The notes under the pieces were generated by a model. The model saw nothing but the letters and a program-made list of their open reading frames with translations. It had not been told where the DNA came from and ran no database searches. 64,000 nucleotides of DNA from Escherichia phage radambza: the sequence record MN850639.1; one strand, given 5' to 3'. Both the position numbers and the translations under genes were made by a program. Below, piece after piece: positions 37,767-43,053 of this stretch; the first letter of the stretch is position 1; the number at the start of each line of letters is the position of its first letter.

Positions 37767-37842
37767 TGGAGAATCCGAAGGGACTCGAACCCTTATAAAC
37801 CTGTTTTGCAGACAGGCACATAGCCATTTCTGTCACGGATTC
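37767..37842 (-). tRNA. tRNA-Cys (GCA)
   Basis: Perfect 7 bp acceptor (GAATCCG/CGGATTC), T-arm AAGGG-TTCGAGT-CCCTT, anticodon loop CUGCAAA, CCA encoded. Confidence 0.8.
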
Positions 37843-37846
37843 AAAT

Positions 37847-37939
37847 TGGAGGAAGATACCAGACTTGAACTGGTACACCGATTTCTCAGCTACTGGCAGT
37901 TTAGCAAACTGCTCCCTTACCTTTTAGGGTTAATCTTCC
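37847..37939 (-). tRNA. tRNA-Ser (GCU), class II
   Basis: Perfect acceptor, T-arm ACCAG-TTCAAGT-CTGGT, long variable arm, anticodon loop UUGCUAA; 93 nt. Confidence 0.75.
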
Positions 37940-37940
37940 A

Positions 37941-38675
37941 TTATTTCTGTAATGCGCTCTTCATTTCTGGTGTTGCAATAGTGTCAATTACACCAGTTTT
38001 ACAGGCATCATCAAACCAGTCTGGTAAGATACCTGCTAAGAACCCATTGATATTCGTTTTAAGGTACTCTGCAATAAGGGCAGCTTCTTCTTCAATCATC
38101 TGCACAACTTCATCTGCATAAGCTGTAATCTTTGAGATACCTTCATTAATCTTACTAACAGCTTGGTTAGCTAAATCAGAAATAGTATCAAGACCTTTGT
38201 CAATAGCGTCTTGTAAATCACTTAATACATCATTAACACCGTCTAGTGCACTGTTAATCGTATCAATAGCTTTTTGACCATACTCTGTAGCAACACCCAT
38301 AATACCACTAAATGGTGTACAGCCAACTTGTTCACCTGCTGCACTCATAACATTAGAATAACCTTTTGCTACCTGCATACGTGATGAAAACTCATCAATG
38401 GACTTTTGACCGTAATCTGTCAGTGTTTTGGTGGTTGATGTAGTGCTTGTTAGACTCGTGGTAAAGCTGTTAAGCAGAACTGTTGTAAGTCCAGCAGCAA
38501 CAAGCTTATCCTTTACTGTAGGGTCTGATACAGAGCTAATAGAGCTTACAAGTGATGTAGAGGCAGCTACGGTTCCACCGAGAACTGCTGCACCAGTAAT
38601 AAGGGGGTTAGAAAACCCTTTACCAGTTTTTAAGAGATTAAAAATCTCCTTACCTTGTTCTGTCATCTCTTTCAT
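37941..38675 (-). CDS. hypothetical protein inside the tRNA cluster
   Basis: Track ORF starts at GTG 38738 inside tRNA-Phe; trimmed to first ATG (38675, RBS AAGGTG). Ser/Thr-rich helical protein. Confidence 0.45.
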   Translation of the reverse strand: MKEMTEQGKEIFNLLKTGKGFSNPLITGAAVLGGTVAASTSLVSSISSVSDPTVKDKLVAAGLTTVLLNSFTTSLTSTTSTTKTLTDYGQKSIDEFSSRMQVAKGYSNVMSAAGEQVGCTPFSGIMGVATEYGQKAIDTINSALDGVNDVLSDLQDAIDKGLDTISDLANQAVSKINEGISKITAYADEVVQMIEEEAALIAEYLKTNINGFLAGILPDWFDDACKTGVIDTIATPEMKSALQK

Positions 38676-38693
38676 TAAGCACCTTTGAAATTG

Positions 38694-38768
38694 GTAGTCC
38701 AGTGGGATTTGAACCCTCTTCTCATGTTTTTCAGACACGCGCTTTAACCATATAAGCTACTTGGACTA
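38694..38768 (-). tRNA. tRNA-Phe (GAA)
   Basis: Perfect acceptor (TAGTCCA/TGGACTA), anticodon loop CUGAAAA; T-stem has one mismatch. Confidence 0.65.
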
Positions 38769-38773
38769 TAAAT

Positions 38774-38849
38774 TGGGGTGACCTACGGGATTTGAACCCG
38801 TATAGACCATGTTCACAGCATGGGTCATTACCATTTATGATAAGGCCAC
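38774..38849 (-). tRNA. tRNA-His (GUG)
   Basis: T-arm ACGGG-TTCAAAT-CCCGT, anticodon arm CCATG-CUGUGAA-CATGG, acceptor with one G-U, CCA encoded. Confidence 0.75.
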
Positions 38850-38880
38850 ATTTAAGGACTCTCGTAAGAATCCTTAGAAG

Positions 38881-38956
38881 TGGCAGCGGCATAAGGATTT
38901 GAACCTTAATAAGACAGCTTCAGAGACTGCTGCATTGCCAGTTATGCTATACCACT
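38881..38956 (-). tRNA. tRNA-Gln (CUG), tentative
   Basis: T-arm TAAGG-TTCAAAT-CCTTA; acceptor and anticodon stems need two G-U pairs each; anticodon loop CUCUGAA. Confidence 0.5.
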
Positions 38957-38961
38957 AAATT

Positions 38962-39040
38962 TGGTACTCCATATCGGATTCGAACCGATACATAACACAG
39001 ATTTTAAGTCTGGCCTCTCTGCCAATTGGAGTAATGGAGC
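38962..39040 (-). tRNA. tRNA with anticodon UAA (Leu by anticodon; class I length)
   Basis: T-arm ATCGG-TTCGAAT-CCGAT, G1-U72, anticodon loop CUUAAAA, short variable region. Confidence 0.6.
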
Positions 39041-39042
39041 AT

Positions 39043-39118
39043 TGGCGGGGGATGTTGGAATTGAACCAACTTCTTCGATTTCAAAGACCGAGGTTTTAAC
39101 CTTGTAAACTAATCCCCT
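39043..39118 (-). tRNA. tRNA-Gln (UUG)
   Basis: T-arm GTTGG-TTCAATT-CCAAC, anticodon arm TCGGT-CUUUGAA-ATCGA, D-stem GTTT/AAAC; 1:72 unpaired. Confidence 0.7.
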
Positions 39119-39126
39119 TTAAATCT

Positions 39127-39684
39127 TTACTTTCTCAGTGGATGAATAAAGAATGCCAACATAACTCTTTCCCTTGAGAATGCTCTTTCTTCTGGGACAA
39201 CACTTTTTAGTTTCCATCCAATATAAATTCTCCAGTAAAATTGTTTACCAAAGATTTTAATTGATGGGATAAAAGCGAATAATCCCCAAGCATTCCTGTT
39301 CCACATTAGGAGATAACCAGTCTGATTATCTTCAGGGTTAGAACTTACGTTGATATTACCTTTCCACTTAGTAACATCTTTTACATCTCTTCCTAACACA
39401 TGGTAAGAGAAGTTATAAGCTTTGTTTCTCCAGAGCCATCCAACTCTTTGCATGTAGACACCTAGTTTACCAATCCATCTAATATTAGCCCATCTTTTAA
39501 CGTGACCTTCATCACCATCAATTGGGTTGTCATATGTCTCCATCCATCTGAATCCGAAAGGTAAGTGTCCTTTCTTCTCACTGTAGAATGGAACTACAAA
39601 AGGTGCTAAGATAACTGCTAAGATTGCTGCAAATGGCTCTAACAAAGCTAAGAAAATCCATGAAGCATACTTTAAGTATCTCAT
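39127..39684 (-). CDS. hypothetical membrane protein inside the tRNA cluster
   Basis: 185 aa, N-terminal TM (IFLALLEPFAAILAVILAPFVV), Trp/Arg-rich; true ATG start. Confidence 0.5.
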   Translation of the reverse strand: MRYLKYASWIFLALLEPFAAILAVILAPFVVPFYSEKKGHLPFGFRWMETYDNPIDGDEGHVKRWANIRWIGKLGVYMQRVGWLWRNKAYNFSYHVLGRDVKDVTKWKGNINVSSNPEDNQTGYLLMWNRNAWGLFAFIPSIKIFGKQFYWRIYIGWKLKSVVPEERAFSRERVMLAFFIHPLRK

Positions 39685-41654: not shown

Positions 41655-41768
41655 TTACCAGACCGTTGTTTATCATCTTAAGTGCTACCATTACACCAAC
41701 TCGACATCTGCCGAGTGAAGGAATCGAACCTTCGCCTTTTCTTTACCGAGAAATAGATTGTTTAAGTT

Positions 41769-41788
41769 TTGCTGTAAACGGTCTTCTG
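41769..41788. repeat. 20 bp repeat TTGCTGTAAAYGGTCTTCTG (copy 1 of 4)
   Basis: Other copies at 41856-41875, 42698-42717 and 42865-42884 (variants TATTTGG, TAATTGG); copies 3 and 4 lie immediately 3' of minus-strand tRNAs. Confidence 0.55.
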
Positions 41789-41936
41789 TAAATTTGTTGA
41801 GCCAGACCAAGTTTTAGATTTTCAAAATTAAATTGGCTTGAAATTTCATACGTTCTTGCTGTATTTGGTCTTCTGCTCCTTTAAAGAATACTCGTAAGAA
41901 CTCTTTAAGGGAGGGGCTAAATAGCCCTCTCAAAAT

Positions 41937-42012
41937 TGGCGAGGTATGCGAGAATCGAACTCGCGGCTCAGGAGAGACAATCCCGTATTTTACCCATCTA
42001 AACTAATACCCC
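41937..42012 (-). tRNA. tRNA-Asp (GUC)
   Basis: T-arm GCGAG-TTCGATT-CTCGC, anticodon loop UUGUCUC, acceptor with one G-U. Confidence 0.65.
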
Positions 42013-42016
42013 AAAT

Positions 42017-42448
42017 TCATGTACCATTTCTTAGATACTTCTTCCTACGTCTTTCTGGACTATAGTTTCTTCTACTCTCAGCATTCTTAGCCAGCCTACA
42101 CTCATCGCATCTACAGCCTTTAAAATAGCTATACGCAGTTCCGTGTTTAATTGTTTTATGTTTTCTTTCACTTATCTGTGCTGGTCTTGCTGCTTTCATG
42201 TTACATTTAAGATGACTATAAGAAATATTATCTAGTGAAAAGAAAAGCTCTTTTGCATTCTCACTATGTCTCCACGGAATCTTATGCTCGATAGAGAAAT
42301 CATCCCTAGTCATTTCTTTTCCGCACTGAAAACATCTATTTTGATTTGTCTTACATATAAAATCGAATAGCAAATCTTTTACTAGTCTGTTTTGTGCAGT
42401 TCCCAAACTCATACCAAGTTGTGATTTGTATACTTCATCTCTCATAAC
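42017..42448 (-). CDS. HNH homing endonuclease inserted in the tRNA cluster
   Basis: CFQCGKEM...FSIEHKIPWRH (HNH core) plus C-terminal Cys cluster; trimmed to ATG 42448 to avoid overlap with tRNA-Tyr. Confidence 0.65.
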   Translation of the reverse strand, partial: VMRDEVYKSQLGMSLGTAQNRLVKDLLFDFICKTNQNRCFQCGKEMTRDDFSIEHKIPWRHSENAKELFFSLDNISYSHLKCNMKAARPAQISERKHKTIKHGTAYSYFKGCRCDECRLAKNAESRRNYSPERRRKKYLRNGT

Positions 42449-42466
42449 TAAGTATCTCGCTAAGTG

Positions 42467-42554
42467 TTGGTGTGCCGTGTAGGAGTCGAACCTACCGAGT
42501 CTCAATGACAAGGGATTTACAGTCCCCACCGCTACCATCTACGGGATAACGACA
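42467..42554 (-). tRNA. tRNA-Tyr (GUA), class II
   Basis: T-arm GTAGG-TTCGACT-CCTAC, anticodon loop CUGUAAA, about 15 nt variable arm; 88 nt. Confidence 0.7.
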
Positions 42555-42565
42555 CATTTAATTTT

Positions 42566-42639
42566 GCGGTTAGTCAGGGATTCGAACCCTGTGCCATTCG
42601 CTTAACAGGCGACCGCACATACCTTATGTGCTTCCTAAC
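42566..42639 (-). tRNA. tRNA-Asn (GUU)
   Basis: T-arm CAGGG-TTCGAAT-CCCTG, anticodon loop CUGUUAA; 7:66 mismatch. Confidence 0.6.
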
Positions 42640-42723
42640 CATATTTAGTATTACCAGACCGTATCTTTCAATTTTTTCCGCTAAAAATTTAATAAATGTT
42701 GCTGTAAACGGTCTTCTGTAAAT

Positions 42724-42800
42724 TTGGAGGCGGGTGCAGGAGTCGAACCTGCCGATACCATGCTAATGAGACATGTGAGACGCCCTTTCTCTATACCCGC
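42724..42800 (-). tRNA. tRNA with CAU anticodon (second Met, initiator or Ile2 candidate)
   Basis: T-arm GCAGG-TTCGACT-CCTGC, anticodon loop CUCAUUA, unpaired 1:72. Confidence 0.55.
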
Positions 42801-42891
42801 AATTCTTAATGACCAGACCAAATCTCTTCTTTGTCCGATTTACCTTCAGATGAATAAGATTAAGTTTGCTGTAATTGGTCTTCTGTCAAAA

Positions 42892-42969
42892 CTGGCGTTC
42901 CAGAAGGGATTTGAACCCTCAAATATCCACTTTGAAAGAGTGGTGACTATACCATTTTGTCTACTGGAA
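42892..42969 (-). tRNA. tRNA-Glu (UUC)
   Basis: Perfect acceptor (GTTCCAG/CTGGAAC), anticodon arm CCACT-CUUUCAA-AGTGG. Confidence 0.7.
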
Positions 42970-42976
42970 CATTAAT

Positions 42977-43053
42977 TTGGTCTCTGTTGGAGGACTTGAA
43001 CCTCCGGCCTTACCGCCCCAAACGGAACGCTCTACCAAGCTGAGCTAAACAGA
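42977..43053 (-). tRNA. tRNA-Pro (UGG)
   Basis: Perfect acceptor (CTCTGTT/AACAGAG), T-arm GGAGG-TTCAAGT-CCTCC, anticodon loop UUUGGGG, D-stem GCTC/GAGC. Confidence 0.75.

Follow-up and report, generated by a model that had tools for sequence, protein, structure and literature searches.

The window analyzed here, a 64,000-nucleotide (nt) stretch of Escherichia phage radambza (MN850639.1), carries a cluster of tRNA genes on its minus strand at 37767..43054. Three of these genes bear leucine anticodons (UAA, CAA and UAG) and have no long variable arm. Judged from their sequences, the three short genes are very probably functional leucine tRNAs of the type I, or armless, lineage. The initial annotation of the window was right that bacterial tRNA-Leu is normally class II, though the leucyl-tRNA synthetase (LeuRS) of the host is reportedly arm-independent.

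Structure, identity and lineage of the armless leucine tRNAs

The three genes, all on the minus strand, are tRNA-Leu(UAA) at 38962..39040 (79 nt, or 76 nt without the encoded CCA), tRNA-Leu(CAA) at 39704..39781 (78 nt, 75 nt without CCA) and tRNA-Leu(UAG) at 40283..40359 (77 nt, 74 nt without CCA). Their variable loops measure 7 nt (GUUAUGU), 6 nt (AUUAGU) and 5 nt (UCAGU), lengths on which ARAGORN, the Rfam covariance model and a structure-guided parse agree, and none of them has the variable arm of more than 10 nt that is a feature of class II. The lengths of 74-76 nt and the short variable regions given in the initial annotation are thus borne out by the ARAGORN and Rfam folds, and the covariance-model folding that it had named as a possible refutation revealed neither a hidden long arm nor another anticodon. 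The Rfam tRNA model scores the genes at 47.5 (UAA), 44.0 (CAA) and 57.3 bits (UAG), with E-values from 5e-7 to 1e-9 in a search of the whole window, and covariance-model alignment gives canonical 7-nt anticodon loops with U33 (CUUAAAA, CUCAAAC and CUUAGAA). Also as claimed, the serine and tyrosine genes of the cluster are long-armed in the ARAGORN calls: tRNA-Ser(GCU) at 37847..37939 (93 nt), an internal class II control, tRNA-Ser(UGA) at 40616..40705 (90 nt) and tRNA-Tyr(GUA) at 42468..42555 (88 nt, with an arm of 3 base pairs (bp) and a 4-nt loop), all on the minus strand.

All three leucine genes have a 3-bp D stem, an 11-nt D loop of the form C-A14-A15-Y-U-G18-G19-Y-A20a-G21-A22, a variable region ending in U48, A73 and an encoded CCA. 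The D arms read CUC-CAAUUGGCAGA-GAG in Leu(UAA), UCC-CAAUUGGCAGA-GGA in Leu(CAA) and GCC-CAACUGGUAGA-GGC in Leu(UAG). G1.U72 is found in Leu(UAA) and in Leu(UAG), the latter having C2-G71 and A37 as well, and every one of the three carries U8-A9, C12:G23 and C13, the core signature of the short lineage described below. Leu(UAA) is at least 99% identical in 215 phage records. For Leu(UAG) no relative was found across all complete E. coli genomes, which rules out a host or prophage copy.

According to the review by Giege and Eriani (PMC9976931), the elements crucial for E. coli LeuRS are A73, A15-U48, G18G19 and A20a; neither the anticodon nor the long arm is an identity element, and arm-truncated tRNA-Leu is still active. 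The initial annotation had suggested comparing the three genes with the needs of the host enzyme, and all published E. coli LeuRS determinants, including A14, A15:U48, G18G19, A20a and A73, are found in each of them. In a 2025 analysis of phage Sf14 (Ounavirinae), leucine is the top tRNAscan-SE isotype for all three Leu genes; that paper is silent on the variable region (PMC12482277). The Leu genes of the Sf14 clade are near-identical to those of the window.

Leucine in the open reading frames (ORFs) of the window (GC 38.9%) is encoded by TTA (29%), CTT (27.6%), CTG (13.2%), TTG (11.9%), CTA (11.6%) and CTC (6.8%). Because of this usage the three anticodons suit the demand of the phage for leucine codons, and together UAA, CAA and UAG could read all six. 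We also compared the large terminase with 92 homologues of 40-58% identity. Its 18 alignable TTA, TTG and CTA codons fall on columns with 52% Leu and 83% L/I/V/M/F, compared with 47% Leu on the columns of CTT and CTC and 4.2% on those of non-Leu codons. The TTA, TTG and CTA codons are thus indistinguishable from CTT and CTC, consistent with a leucine meaning.

Short leucine tRNAs can be found in many other phages. A BLAST search with the 77-nt Leu(UAG) gave gap-free alignments of positions 8-75 with genes annotated as tRNA-Leu in phages of Mycobacterium, Streptomyces, Gordonia, Enterococcus, Bacillus, Cronobacter, Klebsiella and Pseudomonas. Bixzunavirus Koguma has three annotated tRNA-Leu genes of 74-76 nt, Streptomyces phage Genie2 one of 76 nt, Klebsiella phage FBKp34 one of 78 nt and Cronobacter phage CR3 genes of 74 and 75 nt, and in all four annotations the short Leu genes stand beside long Ser and Tyr genes. 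When IMG/VR was scanned for a tRNA-Leu pattern with class I spacing, at least 120 matches were obtained. At the loci among the matches listed, ARAGORN called 172 Leu tRNAs of at most 80 nt versus 24 longer ones, and 73 of the 75 Ser tRNAs were 84 nt or longer. When the scan admitted both spacings, 18 of 120 contigs among the matches listed were of class I, about 15%, a share that describes a scan-order sample of 120 viral contigs and not a collection-wide total. These data suggest that armless tRNA-Leu is common in unrelated phages and not peculiar to this window; our literature search found no paper describing it in phages. In GTDB genomes the class I pattern yielded at least 84 short Leu tRNAs among the matches listed, many of them standing alone in Actinomycetota such as Bifidobacterium and Gardnerella and some belonging to tRNA arrays of Chryseobacterium (our loci L229-L348, e.g. 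L236, L242, L261 and L281 in Bifidobacterium and L235, L263 and L272 in Chryseobacterium). Since armless Leu genes occur in many Bifidobacteriaceae and other Actinomycetota, the type I tRNA-Leu described from Streptomyces coelicolor is not isolated.

The viral sequences are well conserved at positions that the search pattern did not contain, namely A73, A14 and 15:48. Among 168 unique short viral Leu tRNAs, taken from the matches listed in viral contigs, A73 and A14 are each present in 99%, and A15 is combined with U48 in 94%. A further 5% have G15:C48, a covarying switch at the Levitt pair. In 146 of the 168 the variable loop has 5 nt. Stems are 95-99% paired, with 3-6 pair types per position except for the invariant last T-stem pair.

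A core signature was defined by comparing 196 short with 113 long Leu tRNAs. A9 is found in 71% of the short versus 3% of the long ones, C12:G23 in 72-74% versus 3% and C13 in 81% versus 1%. Nearest neighbours are assortative, short with short in 169 of 196 cases and long with long in 97 of 113. In class I tRNAs, positions 9, 12:23 and 13 contact the variable region through base triples and, because the signature falls on positions with this contact, the core of the lineage seems to be adapted to the short variable loop. A minority of short Leu genes keep the long-type core, which suggests that the arm was on occasion lost independently. Overall, the pattern suggests that armless tRNA-Leu may form a coherent, selected lineage of phages and Actinobacteria with its own core signature.

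In our model, the three leucine tRNAs would be co-transcribed with their neighbours from sigma-70-type promoters, and with CCA encoded they would presumably need only end processing by host enzymes. The host LeuRS, blind to the anticodon, would charge them through A73 and the shape of the elbow and core, as predicted from published identity rules. Bacterial tyrosyl-tRNA synthetase contacts the variable arm. For seryl-tRNA synthetase (SerRS) the long arm is the main identity element (PMC9976931). Because SerRS needs the arm and LeuRS does not, the arm would have been lost only where the synthetase allows it, that is in Leu and not in Ser or Tyr, and the A9, C12:G23 and C13 of the lineage core would have been re-tuned for a 5-nt variable loop. 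The anticodons UAA, CAA and UAG would serve an AT-rich phage (39% GC) with mostly UUA, CUU and CUA for leucine, the codon of the host being CUG. Canonical genes would serve seventeen other amino acids, and two genes of non-canonical structure would cover Arg (AGA) and probably Trp.

Several points weigh against this picture. E. coli LeuRS failed on the type I tRNA-Leu(CAA) of S. coelicolor and is said to charge type II only (PMC6614811), a case which shows that armless substrates are not automatically accepted. That tRNA has the variable loop ACAGC, hence C48 and no A15:U48; because the phage tRNAs have A15 and U48, the result is not directly transferable. The same study found 5 nt to be the shortest workable variable loop of the S. 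coelicolor tRNA, in agreement with the phage loops (PMC6614811). In the crystal structure the C-terminal domain of E. coli LeuRS touches arm nucleotides 47f-47i, and the leucine-specific domain prefers large variable regions; owing to the C-terminal contact, the affinity of LeuRS for armless tRNAs may be reduced. One stem mismatch is found in each of Leu(UAA) (C27.U43) and Leu(UAG) (U50.U64). Leu(UAG) also has A37 where the host has G37 and therefore 1-methylguanosine 37 (m1G37) would be absent. Finally, it is from identity rules that we infer leucine charging of the three tRNAs.

The initial annotation left a choice between unusual minimal Leu tRNAs and tRNAs charged with something else. If the latter held, the short tRNAs would carry another amino acid and recode UUR or CUN, as do the tRNA-Thr(UAG) of yeast mitochondria and the tRNA-Ala(UAG) of Ashbya. 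Mitochondrial class I tRNAs with Leu anticodons and other amino acids do exist (PMC7609411), and the reported failure of E. coli LeuRS to charge one type I tRNA-Leu points the same way. However, the phage genes have neither G3:U70 nor an enlarged, 8-nt anticodon loop nor another isotype signature; the Leu isotype model scores best in Sf14, and the leucine D arm, A15:U48, A73 and the other LeuRS determinants are all present and conserved through the lineage. The placing of TTA, TTG and CTA on Leu-conserved terminase columns at the rate of CTT and CTC also speaks against recoding, as do the strong Pfam matches obtained under standard translation. Moreover, with host tRNA-Leu in competition, mischarging would scramble the proteome and damage conserved leucine positions. 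The first of the two options therefore stands, and we consider recoding extremely improbable.

It is also very improbable that the three genes are decaying, non-functional tRNA-Leu relics with a deleted arm, carried as passengers in the cluster. Such decay could be read from the single stem mismatch in each of two of the three genes, and the genome paper of Felix O1, which lists 22 tRNAs, has two 'pseudo' tRNAs (PMC3185647). Relics would not be expected to remain near-identical in hundreds of phage genomes, though, nor to keep the encoded CCA, the determinants and, through compensatory changes, the stems across a diverse lineage. A9, C12:G23 and C13 speak for adaptation to a 5-nt loop and against decay, and the leucine codon usage of the phage calls for exactly these anticodons. 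Another proposal would add to the leucine reading instead of replacing it: the loss of the arm could itself be adaptive, letting phage tRNA-Leu evade host toxins or nucleases that pick class II arms. Phage tRNAs have been proposed as replacements for host tRNAs cut by defence nucleases (PMC10264068), mycobacterial tRNA arrays are discussed as anti-defence units, and a 2026 preprint reports that the abortive-infection toxin AbiEii, like MenT3, probably prefers long-armed class II tRNAs. The arm is gone only in the class II isotype whose synthetase tolerates its absence, but genome economy or neutral drift permitted by LeuRS explains this pattern equally well. Many phages, including T4 and T5, retain class II tRNA-Leu, and for the single chromosomal armless genes of Bifidobacterium and other Actinomycetota an anti-defence role is not obvious. 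We therefore regard adaptive arm loss as an unlikely extension of the preferred reading, in which the three genes are functional armless leucine tRNAs.

The rearranged-core tRNA(UCU) and other non-canonical elements

Besides the leucine genes, the cluster holds a non-canonical minus-strand tRNA(UCU) gene (Arg, codon AGA) at 40945..41026. Its order is acceptor, UAU, CUC, A, anticodon arm, CGUUAACC, GAG, UAAGUGGAGUAU, T arm, A73 and CCA. The gene has a 7-bp acceptor, the anticodon loop CUUCUAA and a normal T arm and is without a D hairpin; the anticodon arm is flanked by 7 nt (UAUCUCA) on its 5' side and 23 nt (CGUUAACCGAGUAAGUGGAGUAU) on its 3' side. The Rfam tRNA model gives 31.7 bits, and ARAGORN misses the gene as it does every member of its family. 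Single-sequence folding is uninformative (z = 0.20); comparative analysis alone revealed the structure. The gene may be a working tRNA-Arg(UCU) with an undescribed topology, from a family that fills anticodon slots empty of canonical genes in unrelated large phages, a reading for which we see the balance as even.

In some Felixounaviruses, such as phage Andreotti, a canonical tRNA-Arg(UCU) occupies the site of this gene. The odd form itself is 83-89% conserved in the unrelated phages Asteriusvirus SD-2_S15, Stephanstirmvirinae PD114 and Klebsiella K54_rec2, where it is always unannotated, and its 23-nt motif occurs in 45 IMG/VR contigs with 33 unique sequences. Over 25 distinct sequences the three stems are 99.4% paired, with 14 of 20 pairs changed on both sides; none of 500 shuffles reaches the observed value and slid controls give 34-48%. 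A covariance model built from the UCU homologues scores ordinary tRNAs at no more than 36 bits and 15 divergent members, from viral loci and Streptomyces phage Genie2, at 39-76 bits. The same model detected no rearranged-core member in 73 bacterial loci, T4 or T5. Anticodons in the family are UCU, CCU, ACG and UCG for Arg and GAU and UAU for Ile. Rearranged-core relatives lie at our loci L352-L399, L004:4767-4847, L048:863-941 and L016:1248-1327, among others. In phage SME50 (L002:3617-4061) a coding sequence (CDS) annotated as 'HNHc domain-containing protein' (3617-4009) overlaps the 3' part of an unannotated rearranged-core tRNA (3980-4061) and is probably an over-extended ORF call.

The family also has a long-range helix, in which the 3 nt before the anticodon arm pair with the 3 nt just 5' of a UAA.NGG motif. 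Both inner positions are paired in 40 of 40 members (CG/GC/UA and UA/CG/GC) and the third in 32 of 40; 2000 partner shuffles never equalled this result. We infer that the first strand corresponds to D-stem positions 23-25 followed by 26, and the later strand to 10-12 followed by A14-A15...G18-G19-N20. The D stem would then enclose the anticodon arm, and the D loop would become a strand leading into the T arm. The cloverleaf would be turned into a three-way junction that could still fold into an L shape. The base after GG is A20 in 35 of 35 Arg members, and U20 is combined with A73 in 5 of 5 Ile members. A20 is a determinant for arginyl-tRNA synthetase. None of the 15 divergent members has the anticodon of a canonical tRNA gene at its own locus. 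A canonical tRNA-Arg(UCU) accompanies the odd gene at two of 49 UCU-type loci: at L375 it is a true duplicate, and at L383 the odd gene has CCU. In the ORFs of the window, 45.8% of the Arg codons are AGA. The A20/U20 pattern, the near-absence of anticodon duplicates and the AGA usage support what would be a real decoding role. Our search of the literature on non-canonical tRNAs found no phage case and no such topology, D-arm loss being described for mitochondria only.

A second non-canonical gene, at 40720..40803 on the minus strand, is tRNA-Trp-like and was called by neither tRNA finder. It has A1-U72, G73, a CCA end and a loop (CCUCCAAAA) that contains CCA, with an 8-bp acceptor and a 4-bp T stem, or 7 and 5 bp with a mismatch. 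The connector before its 3-bp D stem is 9-10 nt long, and the loop has 9 nt, or 7 nt if a C.A pair closes it. We take A1-U72, G73-CCA and the CCA-containing loop to be as in E. coli tRNA-Trp. The gene folds better than shuffled sequences (z = -2.8), has a weak tRNA-Sec match in Rfam (23 bits) and is conserved at 97-100% in Felixounaviruses only. Trp is probably served by this putative gene.

Upstream of the two non-canonical tRNAs, an element at 41146-41225 includes a template (41149..41181, minus strand) that resembles the tag-coding part of transfer-messenger RNA (tmRNA). Read from the sequence, GCA AAC GAC AAU GUU UUU CUG GCA GUA GCU UGA encodes ANDNVFLAVA*. The ssrA tag of E. coli is ANDENYALAA. 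The A-rich AAUAAAU precedes GCA and UAG follows UGA; the tag has a hydrophobic end, and its stops lie in a hairpin loop. The resume motif is the consensus of the Rfam permuted-tmRNA model. Homologues in Klebsiella phage MK54, Vibrio phage pYD38-A, Kuttervirus GEC_vB_N6 and the Schitoviridae phage IME11 have tags such as ANEEMYLAVA, ANDNTFLAVA and ANDDVVLMAA; compensatory changes are seen in two hairpins, and the UAGC/GCUA hairpin covaries. Relatives of the template lie at our loci L402-L405 and L422-L522. A scan with the 14-mer ATAAATGCAAACGA gave 118 viral matches, about half of them chance matches that were filtered by tag-like translation; a tag-like frame follows in 56. Among the 14-mer loci of other viral contigs ARAGORN called 26 tmRNAs, mostly permuted, and it found no tRNA-like domain in the window or in the tag homologues of enterobacterial phages. 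Rfam tmRNA scores are 17-33 bits, under the gathering thresholds of 47-50. Two-piece tmRNAs are known in phages, and the template may be the coding piece of a degenerate two-piece tmRNA, or something new. The idea that the tag and the odd tRNA(UCU) form one tmRNA-like unit was rejected: beyond Felixounavirus, the 450 nt upstream of the odd tRNA contain no tag motif, and the tRNAs that follow the tag in MK54 and pYD38-A are canonical. A sigma-70-like promoter, identified by consensus match only, lies upstream of the template and the non-canonical tRNAs at 41231..41259 on the minus strand (TTGACA, 17 nt, TATAGT; 11/12).

The tRNA cluster and its neighbours

The region is the tRNA cluster of a Felixounavirus, a virulent Felix O1-like phage of Salmonella and E. 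coli. Along its full length of 5451 nt the cluster shows 96.3% identity to Salmonella phage BPS17W1. It has matches in 371 phage records, almost all of them Felix O1-like (Felixounavirus, Ounavirinae), and 205 records cover at least 80% of the query. Hosts of these Felix O1-like phages are Escherichia, Salmonella, Shigella and Citrobacter. The cluster itself was already known, and its tRNAs have long been annotated in relatives; in phages Andreotti and SME50 the annotated genes follow the same order and include three 'tRNA-Leu'.

ARAGORN, run on the whole window, called 24 tRNA genes; all of them lie between 37767 and 43054 on the minus strand, in groups split by three small ORFs and spacers. 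Their anticodons are for Cys, Ser (two), Phe, His, Gln (two), Leu (three), Val, Thr, Gly, Ala, Lys (two), Ile, Met (two), Asp, Tyr, Asn, Glu and Pro, identical to the anticodons listed in the initial annotation. With the two non-canonical genes at 40945-41026 (UCU) and 40720-40803 (CCA-containing loop) this also accounts for its estimate of about 26 tRNA or tRNA-like genes. The set is near-complete, as it had stated, with 18 amino acids served by canonical genes and only Arg and Trp missing from these; the set may be complete if the UCU and CCA genes work. The Rfam tRNA model gives 22 of the 24 ARAGORN genes its gathering score (29 bits) or more, and at that score it does not list tRNA-Tyr (42468-42555) and one tRNA-Met (42725-42801). 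A 25th tRNA-like gene above the gathering score, at 40948-41026, falls on the UCU gene. Of the two genes with a CAU anticodon, 42725-42801 and 41352-41428 on the minus strand, the former has an unpaired U1.C72 and the loop CUCAUUA; each of the two may be an initiator or elongator tRNA-Met or a lysidine-dependent tRNA-Ile.

All three ORFs within the cluster are on the minus strand. An HNH homing endonuclease ORF (42017..42445), supported by Pfam HNH and by HNH annotation in relatives, lies between tRNA-Tyr and tRNA-Asp. A DUF7338 ORF occupies 39127..39684 (Pfam 2e-61), and a DUF7217 ORF 37941..38675 (Pfam 5.8e-90), annotated in relatives as membrane protein or holin. Upstream of tRNA-Pro, the first gene of the cluster, lies a further sigma-70-like promoter at 43081..43110 on the minus strand (TTGACA, 18 nt, TAAAGT, with TG), again a consensus match only; the count of sigma-70-like sites in the region is not above chance. 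Directly upstream of the cluster, 43220-44635 (minus strand) encodes a DUF2828/DUF7788 (vWFA-like) protein, as is the case in Klebsiella phage FBKp34, and a 'Ro-like RNA binding protein' occupies the matching position in Streptomyces phage Genie2. The counterparts in these two phages lie at our loci L005:1789-3228 and L004:1-262. Such a protein may accompany phage tRNA clusters as a conserved partner in RNA handling. A Y-RNA/Ro system was considered because of these proteins; Pfam gives DUF2828 and DUF7788 only, and Rfam finds no Y RNA.

The spacers between the tRNA genes contain a minus-strand repeat, AGAAGACC-N3-4-ACAGCAA ... GGUCUGG, at about 42890-42805, 42725-42645, 41875-41800 and 41795-41655, in which AGACC is able to pair with GGUCU. 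The copy at 41700-41760 has tRNA-half-like pieces, a T arm with 3' acceptor strand followed by a 5' acceptor strand with D-arm-like sequence. Copies of the tRNA-half-like stretch at 41690-41800 are found in Felixounavirus only. The repeat may be a processed small RNA or a leftover of tRNA gene turnover. Two quite different short tRNA-Leu(UAG) alleles occur at the same position among Felixounaviruses (Andreotti, L001:2880-2957, versus 40283-40359 in the window). These phages have either the canonical or the rearranged-core tRNA(UCU), and a tRNA-Arg(ACG) beside Leu(CAA) is present or absent. Such differences point to cassette-like swapping of single tRNA genes.

Significance and comparison with known systems

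Type I tRNA-Leu has hitherto been treated as a mitochondrial trait plus one Streptomyces curiosity; the kind is known, and what seems undescribed is the wider phage lineage. Armless phage tRNA-Leu runs counter to the view that enterobacterial LeuRS serves long-arm tRNA-Leu only, and three such tRNAs with every E. coli determinant provide a natural test of the role of the arm for that enzyme. The lineage bears on tRNA annotation, on the design of orthogonal tRNAs and on ideas of why phages have tRNAs, and arm loss only where the synthetase permits it would neatly illustrate identity rules in evolution. The rearranged-core Arg and Ile tRNAs, unseen by ARAGORN and absent from GenBank annotation, may outweigh the leucine finding. 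Because they are missed, phage tRNA inventories and analyses of codon compensation are systematically incomplete. Should these RNAs work on the ribosome, tRNA architecture outside mitochondria would be more varied than has been assumed.

The leucine genes are close to their E. coli counterparts. The leuZ (UAA, 87 nt) and leuX (CAA, 85 nt) tRNAs of MG1655 share with them the 7-bp acceptor, U8, the 3-bp D stem and the 11-nt D loop xAAYYGGYAGA. A14, A15, G18G19, A20a-G21-A22, U48, A73, CCA and the anticodons UAA and CAA are common to both, and the G1.U72 of leuZ recurs in two of the phage genes. The variable region, in contrast, has 7, 6 and 5 nt in the phage versus 15 nt in leuZ and 13 nt in leuX. 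The phage genes also differ in having A9 instead of G, C12:G23 instead of G:C, C13 instead of G or A and, in Leu(UAG), A37 instead of G37.

Among known armless tRNAs, the S. coelicolor type I tRNA-Leu(CAA) (Fan et al. 2019, PMC6614811) has a 5-nt variable loop and coexists with class II tRNA-Leu and a single LeuRS. It is one isoacceptor with C48, uncharged by E. coli LeuRS, whereas the phage-borne tRNAs are three isoacceptors with U48 and A15 that face an enterobacterial LeuRS. Human mitochondrial tRNA-Leu(UUR) likewise has a short variable loop and uses A73 and A14 as identity elements (PMC9976931). It is floppy in structure and has a dedicated mitochondrial LeuRS, while the phage tRNAs keep a canonical elbow and T loop. 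The clusters of T4 and T5 resemble that of the window in mixing tRNA genes with homing endonucleases, small ORFs and stable RNAs of unknown function. However, the tRNA-Leu of T4 (87 nt) and the tRNA-Leu(UAG) of T5 (85 nt) are class II, and neither phage has a rearranged-core tRNA.

The UCU gene can be compared with the D-arm-less tRNAs of animal mitochondria, with allo-tRNAs (8/4 and 9/3) and with the tRNA-like domain of tmRNA, all of which, like it, keep the acceptor and T arms and the elbow contact. The 8/4 tRNAs are known from bacteria and phages, the D-arm-less ones from animal mitochondria. The UCU gene differs in that it retains a D stem and a D-loop-like UAA.NGG(A/U), re-connected around the anticodon arm.

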